This document shows positions 54,870 through 64,000 of a stretch of 64,000 nt of DNA, piece after piece. Origin of the DNA: a virus. The stretch lies in the IMG/VR virus record IMGVR_UViG_3300025133_000073, positions 11,407 to 75,406 of that record. The stretch is one strand, 5' to 3'. A model generated the notes under the pieces. That model saw nothing but the letters and a program-made list of their open reading frames with translations, was not told where the DNA came from and did not search any database. Position 1 is the first letter of the stretch, and each line of letters starts with the position of its first letter. The translations under genes were made by a program, and so were the position numbers.

Positions 54870-55313
54870 TTACAAGAAGTTATCAAAGGTTCTAATATAA
54901 AATATTAAACATCCATCACCAGTAACGGAAATAACCATTCCAATAACAAAAAGAATGAGGCGTGGAATATAAGGCATGTCGATCCATGCTGTAGAACTTG
55001 TGGTCTGATCCTTCCATCGTAAAGGATAGACACTTGGATCACCATCATTGCGTTTCATATAATATGCTCCATCATGAATATAGATGAATACAAGTGCCAT
55101 AGGAACTCCCGCAAGTAATCCCCACCATGAATACAAAGGAAAAGGAACAAACATCGTAGAAATGAACATGAGAGCCCTTTCTGCTGTGAACATTGAATGA
55201 AGATCCTTAGCGCGGTTAAGGGGACTGAGCCATCTGAAGTGAAAATAATACGCCTCTCTGATACCTTCCAAATAAGCAAAGGCAATGAACAATAATGTAG
55301 CGAGAGTTATCAT
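54870..55313 (-). CDS. Multi-TM membrane protein (147 aa)
   Basis: Several hydrophobic helices; HDGAYY motif. Confidence 0.65.
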   Translation of the reverse strand: MITLATLLFIAFAYLEGIREAYYFHFRWLSPLNRAKDLHSMFTAERALMFISTMFVPFPLYSWWGLLAGVPMALVFIYIHDGAYYMKRNDGDPSVYPLRWKDQTTSSTAWIDMPYIPRLILFVIGMVISVTGDGCLIFYIRTFDNFL

Positions 55314-55615
55314 CTATAAGGAGTCCAAGGGCGATTGAACCACATCTGCACAGCAGTGACCTTATCAATGAACCATCCTGATCTCCCATAGACATCCCTT
55401 GCTATACTGACAGGAATACCTATGAACAACTGAAGCAGAATATACACCGCAACAGGTGAAACAGCAATAAGAGCAAGTATCTGAAATACCAATGCTACTG
55501 GATCATACGTATAATACTGAACTGTCGCAAATATTGCACACAGAATGAACAGATCGACCACTATACCATGCTTGGTAAGGAACCACTTAAGAGCATATAT
55601 GACCCTGTCCTTCAT
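55310..55615 (-). CDS. Membrane protein (101 aa)
   Basis: Two hydrophobic segments; ATGA overlaps. Confidence 0.6.
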   Translation of the reverse strand: MKDRVIYALKWFLTKHGIVVDLFILCAIFATVQYYTYDPVALVFQILALIAVSPVAVYILLQLFIGIPVSIARDVYGRSGWFIDKVTAVQMWFNRPWTPYR

Positions 55616-55935
55616 GTCAATCTCTCATCTTCATCTGTCAACGGAGGCATTTCACCGTCATCATACTCATCATCTTCATCGGTAAGCTCGATCGTCCCAT
55701 TATACACCAATTTACACATGGAATGAAACTTCTCAGCAAAGTCCATCTCTACCTCTACGTCCTTTTTCCCATCAAATATATAACCTCCATGAAGCTTTAC
55801 AGGAATATTCTCATCCTCATCAGTAATAACATTGGAAAACAGTATCATCTCTACATACTTCCCTGGTCCTTCAGGATTCTTCACGAGATTCCTAATGAAC
55901 TGTATATGAGGATATGTATACTCCTTCTCATTCAT
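55612..55935 (-). CDS. Hypothetical acidic protein (107 aa)
   Basis: In-operon ORF. Confidence 0.6.
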   Translation of the reverse strand: MNEKEYTYPHIQFIRNLVKNPEGPGKYVEMILFSNVITDEDENIPVKLHGGYIFDGKKDVEVEMDFAEKFHSMCKLVYNGTIELTDEDDEYDDGEMPPLTDEDERLT

Positions 55936-56086
55936 TCTTCACTCCAATGTTCATGAGCATTACTCTGAACTCCTTCTTTGAAACATCCAAATACAATTCA
56001 AATACGGTCACTTTACCGATGCGTAGCACCATATGGACCTTATCACTCTGCTTATTCGTCGATTTCCAACTATTAACTATTCTCAT
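55928..56086 (-). CDS. Small hypothetical protein (52 aa, MRIVNSWKSTNKQSDK...)
   Basis: Translated by hand; its stop overlaps the next start. Confidence 0.5.
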   Translation of the reverse strand: MRIVNSWKSTNKQSDKVHMVLRIGKVTVFELYLDVSKKEFRVMLMNIGVKNE

Positions 56087-56132
56087 TGCACATTTATTTA
56101 AGATCCGACATTACATAACTCCCAAAGAAGCA

Positions 56133-56216
56133 TTAATAATCATTCATCCATACACGCAACATTGCTATACAGAATCCTATGAACGCTATAAATATGAATG
56201 CCACTATAACTTCCAT
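56133..56216 (-). CDS. 27-aa single-TM microprotein (MEVIVAFIFIAFIGFCIAMLRVWMNDY)
   Basis: Translated by hand; a TAATTTTG box lies 4 nt upstream of the ATG. Confidence 0.4.
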   Translation of the reverse strand: MEVIVAFIFIAFIGFCIAMLRVWMNDY

Positions 56217-56220
56217 CCTA

Positions 56221-56228
56221 CAAAATTA
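56221..56228 (-). promoter_or_regulatory. -7 promoter box TAATTTTG at the head of the minus-strand region (second box TACATTTG at 56467-56474)
   Basis: TAnnTTTG matches near the strand switch. Confidence 0.5.
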
Positions 56229-56596
56229 AACATTATTTTCTTGCCCCTCACCCATGCAAGTTTGAATCACCTCGTAAAAACGCTGCTTGTTTCAGCAGAT
56301 AAAAACTGAGACCTTGACCTCGACATCCAGTTTTTGTGTTGTTCATCAATTATCTGATCCAACAGGGGTTTCACCTGAAGTTACAACTGAAGTGATCTAT
56401 TATGACACTTGGACAAGCCTTACGGGGCTTCGGTAACTCAGAAGTACCTTATTCTTTGTGTCATGTCAAATGTAGGTAATAATCCTGATTTGAAGAGCAA
56501 CTTTGAAAAACTTTTTTTTATAAACAGGCGTTACGACCACCCCAACAAAACTCCCCCTACTGTTTTGTGTTGTAGAACTAATCTTAAATAAATAAA

Positions 56597-56893
56597 ATGG
56601 AAGATTTCAAATTGATCGTAGAAAAGACGTTAACCTTGAAGCAATTCGGCCAGGTCGAAGGCATCTCAAGCATTCACGTGCGTAAGAACCCTCAGAGCGG
56701 CAAGTACTTTGTTGCTGACGGTGCAGGTAATCCTATTGCCAAGATCAGCCACAAGCTCGTGGAGAACAAATCGCTTGACAAAGTGATGCGTTACTGCGAA
56801 GACCCTGAAGAGACTGACCCGAAGAAGAAATTCTTTTGGATGCTCAGTGTCAAGGGGGAGAGCACGCCTGACGTATGGAGTGAGACCCTTTAA
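56597..56893 (+). CDS. Hypothetical protein, first gene of the plus-strand region (98 aa)
   Basis: A-rich Bacteroidota-style leader (TAAATAAATAAA ATG); followed by GC-rich hairpins. Confidence 0.75.
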   Translation: MEDFKLIVEKTLTLKQFGQVEGISSIHVRKNPQSGKYFVADGAGNPIAKISHKLVENKSLDKVMRYCEDPEETDPKKKFFWMLSVKGESTPDVWSETL

Positions 56894-57700
56894 TCGGGGC
56901 TCTCTCGCCCTTCGGGGTTAGTAATGCGTTAATGCATAATGGACATAGTGGGAGTAGTTTACCCACTTTGTTCAGTTTGCCGAGTGATAGGCTGCGCAGT
57001 GCCTTATAACTTCATGTTCGCCAACTATGAAGAGATCATACGTGATACTCAATGGAGTGCTTACATTATTGTCTTGGACGATCAATGTGAACGCATGACC
57101 ATCATTACATCTTAGAGGGATAAACACACTCATTGACTCTGATCAATGAGCAGTGTCTCTCATCCTTGAGGTTGATAAACCTTGACAAGCTTGTGGGGCT
57201 ACTACACGTCTTGCATCTGTTCATCCACGCTCTGTGATAAAGTACCATGGTACAAAGCAGAGCTATCAGTAACAGAAGCAATATCAGACATCGGGAGATG
57301 TTGACGGTTACATTCATAAATGCTATGAGTGTATTCAGAGTTAGTGCAGACATTAAAATCAAGCCGTATTAAGATCAGGTTGACAACTGATCCTACCAAG
57401 AGTTAATGGTATGCTATTATGCATCGTCAATCAATGTGCACTTGTCGGGTGCATCTCACCGTTGATAACCAGTAGTTGTGAGAAGACTACGTAACATACA
57501 TGTTTAACTACATGTACAATGATTGGGACATACAGTGTGGTAACTGTGATGCGAGTGATGATCGTGGAATCCTCTCATGTATTAGTCAGCTGCCTCAACT
57601 GCAGTTAGAGTGCTATCAAGCACTTGATGTCGTCAAGAAAGGACGTAGATACGTCGTATTCCTAAGCAAGAAGACAAACTGCTTATTCATTAGTATTAAC
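56894..57700 (+). ncRNA. Candidate large structured ncRNA A (~800 nt); boundaries and strand approximate
   Basis: No credible ORF; more than 12 consecutive hairpins found by eye (see findings). Confidence 0.55.
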
Positions 57701-57716
57701 CTGATAAGTACATAAG

Positions 57717-57929
57717 ATGGAAGATAGTTTCACAGAAGAGCAGATGATAGAATTTGCTGATTATTGTCGTGATAATGAGTTCATAGGTGTAGTAGGTCTG
57801 TATCATTGGAAGCAGAGTAAGAGACAGGAGATCATTGACAAGGTCATACGTGGTGAGTGTACATTTGAAGATGGTAAAGGTAATAGTGACTTTGATAGTA
57901 GTGATGGACATTTTGAATTGAATCCTTAA
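57717..57929 (+). CDS. Small acidic hypothetical protein (70 aa)
   Basis: Co-oriented ORF between the two structured regions. Confidence 0.6.
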   Translation: MEDSFTEEQMIEFADYCRDNEFIGVVGLYHWKQSKRQEIIDKVIRGECTFEDGKGNSDFDSSDGHFELNP

Positions 57930-57944
57930 TCTAAACTTTATAAT

Positions 57945-58100
57945 ATGGTGACCAACAGCAAACAGAGTACTGTAAACAATAAGATCAAGCGTCTTCAGAA
58001 ACATCTTAAGCGTACTGATCATTTTGATAAGAAAGCTCACAACATTGATCGTAAGATCGATAAGTGTGCGGTCAATGCATTAGCCTTACTTACTAAGTAA
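57945..58100 (+). CDS. Small basic protein (51 aa, MVTNSKQSTVNNKIKRLQKHLKRTDHFDKK...)
   Basis: Translated by hand; AT-rich leader; below the ORF track cutoff. Confidence 0.5.
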   Translation: MVTNSKQSTVNNKIKRLQKHLKRTDHFDKKAHNIDRKIDKCAVNALALLTK

Positions 58101-58104
58101 GATG

Positions 58105-58870
58105 TAAAGATATTGCTCTTCGGAGTATTCGTACGCCTTCGGTACGTTAGGATAAACCAGTAATGGTATAAAGTGATGCTCTTGTGGTAAGGGTGTTGCG
58201 CAGTGTTTCGGCACTGTCCACTGAAAGGCATTGTACCTCGTACACTGTGGTGGGATAAGTCCTTCAAGGCATCTCAGTAGTGTATATTCCTTGACGAGCA
58301 GGGAATTGAGTGTGAAAGCACAATAGGTGGGTATGATGGACATTGGTAGTATAGATCGCCGTCTACAAGCCAATGTCAGTAGAGACTGTGCTGAAGCGTT
58401 GTGAGAAATCACGTGTGTTTAAGCATCTCATGCAATGATAGCCTTGGCAGGCATATTATAGAGTGAAGTGACGTCTAAACTCTTCAAAAGAGAGCATGGT
58501 GTCATCCTTCTCAGGACTTCACTTATAACCTCGGAACCGCATTAAAAAGAAAGGGCTTCATGCCTTGCTTATTAAGCGAAAAGACACTGAGAAGACCATA
58601 GGGTTACAATGACCTTATTCTGCTGTAATATGCAGACATCTGAAGCTCTCAAGGCTGATGATGAGTGGAACAAGTACTATCTGTAGTGAGACGACAGTCT
58701 CTTTAGCTCGTAAGGCATGCGGTAAGAACGGGAAACTATATGCTCTGTGGTAATGTGTGCGGGACACTATCCCGTGGTCATGTCGTCTATTGTGTCGTAA
58801 GATGCAGTGTGCATGGATTGTCGAAAGACGGTCAGATGATGACATGAAAGGCCAAGTGCTCAACCTTTCA
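58105..58870 (+). ncRNA. Candidate large structured ncRNA B (~770 nt); boundaries approximate
   Basis: Three TTCG-loop hairpins, GAAA and GTAA tetraloops, nested long stems; no credible ORF. Confidence 0.6.
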
Positions 58871-58903
58871 ACCTTTTTATTAACCAATTAAAACAAGATC
58901 GTT

Positions 58904-59194
58904 ATGCCTGATACATCAACAACCCAATTAGTATTACGTGTTACCATGTACGCTGATGAAATAACAGCGTCAGCAAGAGTATTAACTGCAAAAGAGCCTA
59001 CTAAGGTACCTTATAATAATGTGACCAAAGCTCTATTGAAGGATAAAGAGTATTCTGTAGTAGCTAAGGTAACACCTCTTCAAGTGACCTTGGAGTATGT
59101 AATATCTGAGGATGCTGCAAATATGCTTATTGCATTGAATAATGAAACAAGTGAGTTACAAAAAGCCTTTGCGGGCACAGCAGAAATAACATGA
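58904..59194 (+). CDS. Hypothetical protein (96 aa)
   Basis: A-rich leader; ATGA overlap with the next gene. Confidence 0.65.
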   Translation: MPDTSTTQLVLRVTMYADEITASARVLTAKEPTKVPYNNVTKALLKDKEYSVVAKVTPLQVTLEYVISEDAANMLIALNNETSELQKAFAGTAEIT

Positions 59195-59592
59195 GATATA
59201 TAATAGTATTACTCAGTGTATTATCCATAGGATGTACAAAGAATATTGTGAAGGACATTGATGTTACTGTTGAAAGACAGTCAGCATTCAGTATAGATCA
59301 CATACTACTTACCATTGATGCACAGCATAGTGCTTCATTTGGTGAGAATATTGAGCCATTTGTGCTTGATATCATTATTACTGCATTACCTGTTACTGAT
59401 GTTACCAATGAAGAGCTGTGGTTGTATACTACAAACCTTTATGAGGTCACTGAAACAGTATCAATAAGCTCATCAGAGTTTGTTGCATGTAATGGTAAGA
59501 TGGTGTATAGTAAAGGACATGCGTTTACGTCCATCATACATACAGAATATCAACGTTTTTACACATTTACTCACGAGATCCGAATAAGATGA
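59191..59592 (+). CDS. Putative lipoprotein (133 aa)
   Basis: MRYIIVLLSVLSIG-C lipobox-type signal. Confidence 0.65.
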   Translation: MRYIIVLLSVLSIGCTKNIVKDIDVTVERQSAFSIDHILLTIDAQHSASFGENIEPFVLDIIITALPVTDVTNEELWLYTTNLYEVTETVSISSSEFVACNGKMVYSKGHAFTSIIHTEYQRFYTFTHEIRIR

Positions 59593-59954
59593 GACTGATC
59601 AAAGTAATATATCTATGGCTTTTGCCTATACTGAATGTGATATTGATAGCAGTAGCTCTGTTCCCAGAGTATGTGTACGGAGATATTGATGTTAATGAGA
59701 GCATGTTACGCATCTTAGCAGGTATGTTGACCATCATATGTCTGTTCCTGTACATTATTGTCAGGAAATATGTCAATTTGATGGAGACACCGTTGTCTTT
59801 TGATGATTGGTATGATAGTTATGGAGAGCTCATTGCTATTAAGCATGCAGAGAGTGGTAGAGATAGAGAGCTCGGTTACGATGCTGATCGAGCTTATGAA
59901 GATGAGTATGAATATTACTTGACATTCTTCCCAGAGAAGAACAGGTATGACTAA
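59589..59954 (+). CDS. Two-TM membrane protein (121 aa)
   Basis: Two hydrophobic helices and an acidic tail; paralogous to 61698-62003. Confidence 0.65.
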   Translation: MRLIKVIYLWLLPILNVILIAVALFPEYVYGDIDVNESMLRILAGMLTIICLFLYIIVRKYVNLMETPLSFDDWYDSYGELIAIKHAESGRDRELGYDADRAYEDEYEYYLTFFPEKNRYD

Positions 59955-59965
59955 AAAGGAAGAGA

Positions 59966-60826
59966 ATGAGACAGCTTAAAATAGTTAGATCGATCACTAA
60001 TCGTGAGAACGCATCATTTGATAAGTATTTACAAGAGGTCAGTAAAGAGGAGATGATCAATGCTGAACAAGAGATAGCATTGGCACGTAGGATCAAACAA
60101 GGTGATCAAGCAGCTTTAGAGAAGCTGACCAAAGCAAACCTTCGTTTTGTGATATCAGTTGCCAAGCAGTATCAGAATCAGGGATTGAGTCTTCCTGACC
60201 TTATCAGTGAGGGAAATGTGGGGATGATGAAAGCAGGGATGCGATTTGATGAAACGAGAGGTTTCAAGTTCATTTCGTATGCTGTATGGTGGATACGTCA
60301 ATCCATATTACAGGCATTGGCAGAACATGCAAGGGTAGTGCGTCTACCGTTGAATCAGATCGGTTTGTTGAATAAGATCTATAAGATGATCTCTAAATTA
60401 GGACAGGAATTAGAACGAGAGCCTTCTATACAAGAGATCGCAGATGCAATGAATATGTCTGAGGATAAGGTAGCAGATGCATTACGTGTCTCAGGACATC
60501 AGGTATCATTGGATGCTCCTTTTATACAAGGAGAGGATAATGGTCTCTTAGATGTCATTGAGAATCATGATTCACCTCGTGCTGATGAAGCATTGATGAA
60601 TGAGTCATTGAACAAAGAGATAGAGCGTGTACTCAGTAAGCTTGATGAGCGTGAAAGGGACATATTAGTGATGTTCTTCGGTATAGGAAGATCTCATGGA
60701 TGTTCCTTGGATGAAGTGAGTGACGCTTTCAATCTTACGAAAGAGCGTGTTCGTCAGATCAAACTGAGAGCACTTGGGAAGCTGCGTTATACATCGCGCA
60801 GTAAACTGTTGAAGCAATTTCTGTAA
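59966..60826 (+). CDS. rpoD: Sigma-70 family factor, Bacteroidota primary-sigma (RpoD/SigA) type (286 aa)
   Basis: MRQLKI..SITNRE..S.DKYLQE, ANLRFVISVAKQYQNQG, FDETRGFKFISYAVWWIRQSILQALAE and LTKERVRQI. Lacks region 1.1, like the Bacteroidota housekeeping sigma. Confidence 0.95.
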   Translation: MRQLKIVRSITNRENASFDKYLQEVSKEEMINAEQEIALARRIKQGDQAALEKLTKANLRFVISVAKQYQNQGLSLPDLISEGNVGMMKAGMRFDETRGFKFISYAVWWIRQSILQALAEHARVVRLPLNQIGLLNKIYKMISKLGQELEREPSIQEIADAMNMSEDKVADALRVSGHQVSLDAPFIQGEDNGLLDVIENHDSPRADEALMNESLNKEIERVLSKLDERERDILVMFFGIGRSHGCSLDEVSDAFNLTKERVRQIKLRALGKLRYTSRSKLLKQFL

Positions 60827-60929
60827 AAGGTATAGCAGGTGTACATTCTTAGAATATCACAAGAAGTATGACCATGATGTAATTGGTGATAAGGACAAAC
60901 GAAACATTACAAACTTAATAATAACAAGC

Positions 60930-61701: not shown

Positions 61702-62003
61702 AGGTAGTATTACATATCATTTATACATACTGTCTTCCTATCTTGGGAGCAGTATTCGTACTCACGGCAATATTTCCTGAGTATTTTTATCCAGGGATAC
61801 ATGTGAACAGGAGTGCTATGTTGGTAGCAACTCTGATAATGTTCTCATGTACCATAGTGATATCTATCACTATAAGAACAATAATGAATAACCAACAGGA
61901 CGAAGCTGAACATCCTGAACATAGTAGGCTCTTTATCAAATATAGAAATGATGAAAACAATATTAGGTCTGATTGTCGTTGCGATGATGACATCATGTGG
62001 TAG
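61698..62003 (+). CDS. Two-TM membrane protein (101 aa), paralogue of 59589-59954
   Basis: Start at MKVVL (ATGA overlap); shares LPIL...FPEY.Y..I.VN.S. Confidence 0.6.
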   Translation: MKVVLHIIYTYCLPILGAVFVLTAIFPEYFYPGIHVNRSAMLVATLIMFSCTIVISITIRTIMNNQQDEAEHPEHSRLFIKYRNDENNIRSDCRCDDDIMW

Positions 62004-63180: not shown

Positions 63181-63682
63181 GGGGGCGACTGGTTTTTGAC
63201 AGCAACACCTAAGTATAGTAACATGCACGTGAGATGATATCACTAAACACGTATGAAATACGGTATCAAAACGCTTAACTGGCGAAACAAAAGTTGTAAA
63301 TCTTTTTGACAACGTTCAGAACGTTGTGCAGGAAGTACGTTTGGCAGCGTAAAAATGCTACCCTCATCACTTGTGGTGGGGGACTTATTGTTCAATTGAG
63401 TATCTGGCATTAAGAGGAAGTCAGACTAAGCTATTCCTGCATTCACAAATAGTAAGTAACTATATAATGCTTACAACGGGAACACATACTACGGGTAACA
63501 ATCAAGGATAGGTCGTAGTATGGATGGGTGAGATAAACAAGGCTTAGTTGAACATCGCATTGATTTCCTGTTTTGAATAAAGCAGGTGGTGGAGCCGACC
63601 GTTAGGTCAGCCTAAAAGTAAGCATGTATAATTATTATATTGACAGTATTGTTGGACGAGGGTTCGATGCCCTCCGTCTCCA
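63181..63682 (+). ncRNA. ssrA: Transfer-messenger RNA (tmRNA); tag GETKVVNLFDNVQNVVQEVRLAA* at 63281-63352
   Basis: 5' GGGGGCG pairs with 3' CGTCTCC-A with a G3.U wobble; GG...TTTGAC D-loop analogue; T-arm GAGGG-TTCGATG-CCCTC; TAACT-GGC resume context; tag ends LAA-stop. CCA is not encoded. Confidence 0.93.
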
Positions 63683-63710
63683 CTTTTATAAACAATCTAA
63701 AGCTAAACAA

Positions 63711-64000
63711 ATGGGAGCGAATAGAAAGAGAGTAAAGGTACATATGCTGCCTACAGATAAACCAAGCTTCATAGCAAAAGGTAAAATTGATGGGATTTTA
63801 GCTCTTAATCATGATCACCCCTTTGATTCTGTACAGTGGCAAAACCAACACCTCTACTTCACAACTTCTGAAAAGATAAAAGAGGGTGACCCTGTGGTAT
63901 GGAATGATAAAGTAGAAAGGGCAGGGAATAATCAGCTTGGTAGAAAAATCATCGCAACAACTGATCCTAAGTTGATAAAGGATGGAGTTGCTCAAATACC
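63711..64000 (+). CDS. Partial hypothetical protein (MGANRKRVKVHMLPTDKPS...QHLYFTTSEKIKEGD...KIIATTD), truncated at the right edge
   Basis: Translated by hand; open to the window end; motif style seen in Bacteroidota phage proteins. Confidence 0.7.
   Translation, partial: MGANRKRVKVHMLPTDKPSFIAKGKIDGILALNHDHPFDSVQWQNQHLYFTTSEKIKEGDPVVWNDKVERAGNNQLGRKIIATTDPKLIKDGVAQI

Follow-up and report, generated by a model that had tools for sequence, protein, structure and literature searches.

The structured core (57125-57364, plus strand) of a hairpin-rich non-coding region, carried by an uncultured marine phage of the crAss-like group (Crassvirales) just behind its first early gene, is with high confidence a true homologue of the Hatchet self-cleaving ribozyme. 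As a whole, the locus is probably best explained by a Hatchet placed in an early plus-strand transcription unit, which it would cut co-transcriptionally. All positions refer to the window, i.e. the whole stretch of 64,000 nucleotides that was analysed, which is part of an IMG/VR record of 75,406 bp with an estimated completeness of 75%.

DNA matching the source sequence was found in marine metagenomes, in contigs nearly all identical to the window. The head genes of the phage (capsid, portal and large terminase) resemble crAss-type PHROGs, and its capsid protein shares ~42% identity with those of Crassvirales and <60% with any in the phage collection. Genes are carried by the minus strand up to ~56.0 kb and by the plus strand from 56597 onwards, and the cumulative GC skew switches at ~56-57 kb. 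Between these divergent gene modules lies a conserved non-coding block (56261-56443), with 73-74% identity in four relative records (alignment A1). This block, which could be a promoter/leader region or a terminator, is the only DNA within 55300-60900 common to the window and its closest relatives, and was used as a synteny anchor; the small genes next to it in the relatives could not be aligned at the DNA level. Inside the block, the stem sequence of a hairpin (56283-56298) varies by lineage with its pairing kept (alignment A1), and a T-run follows this hairpin on the minus strand.

The first plus-strand (early) gene, ORF98, codes for 98 aa (56597-56893, codon score 0.10). The Hatchet is on the same strand as its flanking genes and is followed by two credible plus-strand genes of 70 aa (57717-57929, codon score 0.28) and 51 aa (57945-58100, codon score 0.17), by region B, a GOLLD-like RNA (58461-58866, plus strand), and by a tmRNA (63181-63685, plus strand). 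Region B gave a full-length match to the GOLLD model with 62.9 bits vs. a cut-off of 150 (E 3e-15), and the tmRNA has 70.5 bits in Rfam and no ARAGORN call. Since no terminator-like site was found on the plus strand between 55800 and 59300, we infer a single early transcript holding ORF98, the non-coding region 56894-57716 (region A), the two small genes and region B. A scan for sigma-70-type promoters remained below shuffle expectation, and TAnnTTTG boxes were not enriched, with none on the plus strand upstream of the hairpin-rich region. Several minor features were also recorded in this arm. ORF98 and the 70-aa gene are 86% alike around their starts (56585-56605 and 57705-57725), with TAARTAMATAARATGGAAGAT (repeat D3), which may be a shared translation-start signal, and both proteins start with MED. 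A 37-nt piece of region B (58646-58682) is repeated in unrelated contigs of several marine runs, and a weak permuted-tmRNA match (63624-63808) overlaps the 3' end of the tmRNA.

The Rfam comparison of region A, one of the checks proposed in the preliminary description, gave a full-length match (model positions 1-133) to the Hatchet family RF02678 at 57162-57364. The match is found on the plus strand only and exceeds the gathering score (55.4 bits vs. 51, with E-values of 1.6e-8 when the window was searched and 4.5e-12 when the genome was), although by only 4 bits, vs. scores of 69-104 bits for the Hatchets of 49 scanned IMG/VR contigs. The Rfam alignment was mapped onto the env10 crystal-structure numbering (PMC6561176). 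Hatchets are cleaved at the base of P1 (PMC4604424), and on this numbering the bond predicted to be cut is C(-1)/U1, between C57165 and U57166, where the 5' strand of P1 begins. P1, which has three or six pairs in the family with the cut at its 5' base, consists here of six standard pairs, two of them G.U (UUGAGG/CCUUGA, 57166-57171/57180-57185), closed by loop L1, UUGAUAAA (57172-57179). It is followed by the CAA linker (C20-A22, 57186-57188), by P2 (GCUUG/CAAGC, 57189-57193/57360-57364), by UGGG (U28-G31, 57194-57197) and by P3 (57197-57200/57343-57347), which includes G31-C64 and G32.U62. The conserved columns of the 3' core, GUGCAGACAUUAAAAUCA (57344-57361), hold G63-G66 and A73-A75. All these elements are on the plus strand.

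Conservation of the core was analysed in an alignment of the window with 17 diverse phage Hatchets (A2, 18 sequences). The window has every nucleotide described as highly conserved (C20-A22, U28-G31, G63-G66 and A73-A75; PMC6561176), and the CAA, UGGG and GUGCAGACAUUAAAAUCA columns are invariant across the alignment. In P2 and P3, which are fully paired, 9 of 9 pairs are standard. The alignment pairs 28/210, 30/208 and 39/189 covary across the 18 sequences, the window being unique at 30/208. In P2, the window pair U57191-A57362 represents a double change, the other 17 Hatchets having C-G or A-U there. P3 has U-A where others have G-C. The ribozyme region folds better than its shuffles (z from -3.0 to -4.3), and the Hatchet part folds better on the plus strand. 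As for its surroundings, a blastn comparison of 56400-59000 with 50,697 phage records gave no match.

P0, present in ~90% of Hatchets (PMC4604424), was also recognised: the inverted repeat 57129-57150, noted earlier as one of many hairpins, is the P0 of this Hatchet. In the constrained fold, it occupies 57125-57155 on the plus strand, with an 8-bp stem (57129-57136/57143-57150) lengthened by CAC/GUG. It lies just 5' of the cut, with a longer spacing to P1 than usual. In a low-depth strain-variant contig, C57131U and G57148A together replace a C-G pair of P0 by U-A, a compensatory change, and A57132G turns an A-U pair into G.U. All three changes keep P0 paired in the plus-strand RNA. The last one, A-U to G.U, keeps the pairing in the plus-strand RNA only.

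P0 also takes part in a competing structure. A 12-bp helix is possible between its 5' arm and loop and the 3' core strand (57335-57346), with a duplex energy of -17.7 kcal/mol (z -3.4), the strongest in the set, and the unconstrained fold containing this helix is 13 kcal/mol more stable than the ribozyme fold. A side observation concerns the P0 loop of many gut-phage Hatchets (L088, L089, L092, L123, L173 and others, most of them with a three-pair P1), which contains GUCUGUGAAGAU. This motif is partly complementary to CAGAC of the conserved core and could form a contact or an inhibitory pairing with it.

The most unusual part of the window Hatchet is P4, an enlarged and branched domain (57201-57342, plus strand) with a long hairpin (57211-57281) and a GGGA-capped hairpin (57287-57302). 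Two further inverted repeats that had been noted earlier, 57229-57263 and 57288-57301, are arms of this domain. The distance between the two cores, 144 nt, is the longest among 49 unique Hatchets (median 79, next 123). In the constrained fold, P4 measures ~140 nt, branches above a short and imperfect closing helix, and the model flags several of its pairs as non-standard. Deviations also concern L1, with UUGAUAAA vs. the consensus UGAGAAU carried by all examples of a six-pair P1 in the set, P1 position 3 (G.U instead of A-U) and the 5' side of L3 (UACU vs. UUAU, with U58/U59 retained). Consequently, the set of L1-L3 contact nucleotides (L1 UGAGAAU; A36-U58, U37-A57 and U39; the U59 triple on A3-U17) is incomplete in the window. 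In the crystal-structure study, the L1-L3 contact was necessary for activity, and the U59 triple on A3-U17 mattered for it (PMC6561176); they bear on activity and are not a criterion of Rfam membership. Given the deviant L1, L3 and P1 position 3, the low score, the large P4 and the competing fold, the sequence indicates an element that is likely, although not assured, to be catalytically active.

Compared with known Hatchets (RF02678; Li et al. 2015, PMC4604424; Zheng et al. 2019, PMC6561176), P0, P1, the CAA linker, P2 and P3 are alike, and so are the conserved L2 nucleotides on both strands, G31-C64 and G32.U62. Apart from L1 and P1 position 3, the differences reside in P4 (branched and ~140 nt long vs. 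a hairpin), in the distance between P0 and P1 (10-15 nt vs. a few nt), in the number of copies (one per genome vs. two to three) and in the marine vs. gut source.

The Hatchet 3' motif was found in more than 114 IMG/VR contigs, mostly of ~100 kb. Scanning with the Hatchet model showed one to three Hatchets in 49 of 50 contigs. Sample numbers, together with RefSeq matches in human feces, suggest a gut origin for most of these ~100-kb Hatchet contigs (L088, L124, L141, L099, L082 and 45 further IMG/VR records, each scanned). A frequent layout consists of two Hatchets ~100-250 nt apart and a third one 2-3 kb downstream. The Hatchets that were inspected lie in ncRNA-rich islands with RAGATH-6, -7 and -9, tRNA and permuted tmRNA-like RNA, and these elements, together with RAGATH-7-assoc, are on the same strand as the Hatchets. 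Such gut-phage islands, at least some of them crAss-like, share with the window the same-strand RNA genes and a tmRNA downstream, whereas the window has neither a RAGATH motif nor a tRNA, its companion is a sub-threshold GOLLD-like RNA and its flanks are unrelated. Unannotated Hatchets were also found in RefSeq crAss-like genomes (NC_055897.1, 24754-24878; NC_055900.1, 82908-83032; and others). Within the library of papers that was searched, none links Hatchet with crAss-like phages.

Concerning the closest relatives, the nearest phages have a capsid protein ~80% identical to that of the window phage, and no Hatchet was found in them at E<=1. Pattern scans located the conserved block 56261-56443 in four viral loci and four metagenome loci, none of which added a Hatchet. 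When the 3' variant of the window Hatchet was scanned for, no contig had its P2, and the A variant turned up in three unrelated contigs. Of the 592 loci obtained with the sigma factor, the best eleven are devoid of Hatchet, so that this gene is not useful as a synteny anchor. A search of IMG/VR with the 98-aa protein gave no relatives. With blastp and tblastn run without composition correction, distant homologues of ORF98 (31-41% identity, E 3e-7 to 2e-10) were found in first-gene position after the block in L220, L228, L229 and L231. No similarity was detected between ORF98 and the first gene of L221 by protein comparison, blastp or tblastn.

A probable ribozyme of another class occupies the same slot in one of these lineages. 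Matches to twister-P1 (RF03160) were found in L221 (2127-2186, plus strand; 56.7 bits, E 1.6e-10), L223 (6733-6792, minus strand; 56.7 bits) and L228 (1085-1148, minus strand; 41.5 bits, E 3.7e-6). They are below the Rfam gathering score of 67.2, with the core motifs UAA, GGUC.CAAG and GAG.G aligned, and the element of the L221/L223/L228 lineage is probably a twister-P1 ribozyme. The order is that of the window: the block, an ORF98-like gene, a spacer, the ribozyme, a non-coding stretch and the next gene. The gene-free spacer preceding the ribozyme is 350-400 nt long in the relatives, vs. 272 nt up to the cut in the window. Twister-P1 and Hatchet differ in fold and family and have no sequence relation. 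As type-P1 twisters cut near their own 5' end, the ribozyme would stay on the 3' product. No recognised ribozyme was found in the slot of the lineages L220/L222 and L229. The presence of a probable twister in place of the Hatchet suggests that the slot requires a cleavage event as such, in which case the cut would be the selected function. Two observations can be added on the sequences following the twisters: ~150 nt after that of L221, just before the next gene, there is a terminator-like hairpin (GCAAGG...CCUUGC) with a U-run, and in L228 the twister is followed at a distance of ~0.7 kb by a permuted tmRNA (58 bits).

Most likely, the Hatchet serves to cleave the polycistronic early RNA while it is being transcribed. 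With the polymerase beyond 57364, this RNA would fold into P1-P2-P3 with the enlarged P4, and would cut itself co-transcriptionally by internal transesterification between C57165 and U57166. The 5' product would be the ORF98 mRNA, ending with a 2',3'-cyclic phosphate 10 nt after the extended P0. The 3' product would start with a 5'-hydroxyl and comprise the folded ribozyme, a hairpin-rich stretch of 350 nt, the two small genes and the GOLLD-like RNA. The first early message and the RNAs downstream of it would thereby be uncoupled in their fates. It is fairly probable that the Hatchet is both active and used in this way.

The Hatchet family being already known, the find is a modest one. Nevertheless, Hatchet ribozymes were described from metagenomes alone and their biological role is still not known (PMC4604424). 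Here, a divergent Hatchet is pinned to a defined point of the early transcript of a marine crAss-like phage, directly after the conserved first early gene. In functional terms, the phage would need a cut at this slot, whichever ribozyme supplies it. Also, if the element is active, the family tolerates a branched P4 of 140 nt and a non-consensus L1.

A rather unlikely reading is that the Hatchet heads an RNA that is set free when a downstream mimic of the P1 5' strand is cut as well, and whose ends may then be ligated to give a circle. Viroid-like circular RNAs of 357-567 nt carrying Hatchets were reported from aquatic metatranscriptomes (Lee et al., bioRxiv 10.1101/2022.07.19.500677); as in the window, their origin is aquatic, their G+C content is low and their Hatchet is single. 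A candidate second site, GUCG/UCAAGA between 57632 and 57633, would give a unit of 467 nt (57166-57632), within this published range, and another one, UCCU/UCAAGG between 58263 and 58264, pairs perfectly with the P1 3' strand. Some gut-phage Hatchets even repeat their own P1 5' strand exactly, ~215 nt past the ribozyme. However, candidate sites occur at chance frequency (4 observed vs. 3.8 expected in 2.5 kb), with P = 0.28 for at least one site in the 357-567 nt range, and the cut-site repeat is kept in ~7 of the 20 distinct gut-phage contexts sampled. Moreover, the best helix predicted to close the downstream domain (57366-57383 with 57696-57711, P = 0.07) reaches beyond 57632. The window ribozyme further differs from the circular RNAs of Lee et al. 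in that it is encoded in a dsDNA phage genome, and neither a circle nor a junction nor a significant second site was found for it. Should the RNA nevertheless be circular, DNA phages like this marine crAss-like phage would be a source of the aquatic "viroid-like" Hatchet circular RNAs. As a separate observation, the plus strand at 58260-58296, 1.1 kb downstream of the Hatchet, combines UCCU/UCAAGG, 19 nt and CCUUGAC, which reproduces the surroundings of the cut and, without any difference, the 3' strand of P1. A second Hatchet at 58260-58300 was considered and rejected: a P1-like hairpin with the same 3' strand is present, but the UGGGGC core is missing.

Decay of the Hatchet to an inactive relic, with the whole region merely an untranslated spacer between early genes, is unlikely. 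The score barely over the cut-off, the deviations in L1, L3 and P1 position 3, the oversized P4, the competing helix and the closest relatives devoid of Hatchet would all fit such decay. Against it, the catalytic-core nucleotides and the pairs of P1 to P3 are all intact, their changes being compensated, P0 is kept by a compensatory change in the strain variant, and the relatives maintain, at the equivalent position, what is probably a ribozyme from a different class.

As for the hairpins of region A, which is non-coding and hairpin-rich, all the inverted repeats listed in the preliminary description were recovered as placed (57129-57150, 57229-57263, 57288-57301, 57373-57392, 57497-57516 and 57609-57624, as well as the nested pair at ~57429-57465, 57642-57655 and 57664-57685). 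In total, 29 local hairpins with perfect stems of 5 bp or more were counted in 56894-57716, vs. 11.8 +/- 4.1 after dinucleotide shuffling (none of 300 shuffles reached 29), i.e. short perfect hairpins at ~2.5 times the shuffle frequency. For hairpins of at least 6 bp, the region stands above all 77 equal tiles of the window. Taken separately, 57365-57716 has a significant excess (16 vs. 5.5 expected, P = 0.007), the Hatchet part a borderline one (8 vs. 3.5, P = 0.05) and 56894-57128 a non-significant one (5 vs. 2.7, P = 0.19). Folding energy beyond that of shuffles was found only in 56750-56950 and 57050-57400 (z down to -4.3), and none was found in 57400-57750 (z near 0). The plus-strand flanks of the Hatchet are a non-coding spacer, taken as the 3' UTR of ORF98 (56894-57124; MFE z -2.18), and the hairpin-rich non-coding stretch assigned to the 3' product (57365-57716; MFE z -1.6). 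Neither flank has an Rfam match at E<=1 or any similarity in the relatives.

These data bear on the earlier proposal of a single structured ncRNA of ~800 nt, acting as a protein sponge, a decoy or an anti-defence RNA. The structured element does lie on the plus strand after the first plus-strand gene, and no similarity to region B was found in sequence comparison, as had been stated; the single large RNA, on the other hand, was not upheld, since its core is a Hatchet. Such an RNA is very unlikely: a self-cleaving ribozyme in its middle would split it, the 57400-57750 part shows no excess folding energy and no conservation of the flanks was seen in any relative. Nothing was found that points to a sponge, decoy or anti-defence role; the core belongs to a described ribozyme family. 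What speaks for it is that the flanks are non-coding and enriched in short hairpins, and that early intergenic regions are strongly transcribed in Cellulophaga phage phi14:2, where two long ones are transcribed above most protein-coding genes (bioRxiv 10.1101/2020.03.07.982082). Like the window phage, phi14:2 is a marine crAss-like phage whose early arm has two long gene-free stretches with a small gene between them. However, no Hatchet, GOLLD or twister-P1 match was found in phi14:2, so that the parallel is positional only.

Coding was considered as well. Two short frames, of 58 aa (56939-57115, in the upstream flank) and 71 aa (57500-57715, in the downstream one), had been described as atypical, and indeed both have a non-coding codon usage. 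Their codon log-odds (-0.14 and -0.09, respectively) are within the range of spurious frames, far below the 0.08 to 0.29 of the accepted genes of the phage. No homologue was found among 5.8 billion clusters, except for the 71-aa frame's own sequence, and there were no Pfam or PHROG hits and no counterpart in the relatives; the 71-aa frame is thus not the conserved protein whose existence would have contradicted a structured RNA. Even though both frames are open and the 71-aa one stops 1 nt before the next start codon, it is highly improbable that they encode real small early proteins.

The least credible explanation is a DNA-level element, i.e. the ssDNA hairpin array suggested earlier as a replication origin or as virion-RNAP promoters: many hairpins of the region are perfect palindromes, equally good on either strand, the cumulative GC skew turns at ~56-57 kb and the virion RNAP of phi14:2 favours single-stranded templates in vitro (Drobysheva et al., bioRxiv 10.1101/2020.03.07.982082), but such an array is not needed for the core, which is a strand-specific match to an RNA family covariance model, whose Hatchet part folds better on the plus strand and whose P0 variant (A-U to G.U) pairs only in the plus-strand RNA, and the early transcripts of phi14:2 have no common upstream motif (Drobysheva et al., bioRxiv 10.1101/2020.03.07.982082).

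Finally, other RNA elements were noted in the early arms of the window and its relatives. In L220 (3943-4085, plus strand) and L222, a tRNA-like match carries a 73-nt insert between its D and T arms. Further downstream, DUF805b-like and tmRNA elements occur both in the window and in the relatives. The DUF805b motif has 47.4 bits in L221 (5975-6009, plus strand; cut-off 35.6) and a faint match of 18.9 bits in the window (61896-61930, plus strand), at a similar place in the early arm of the two.
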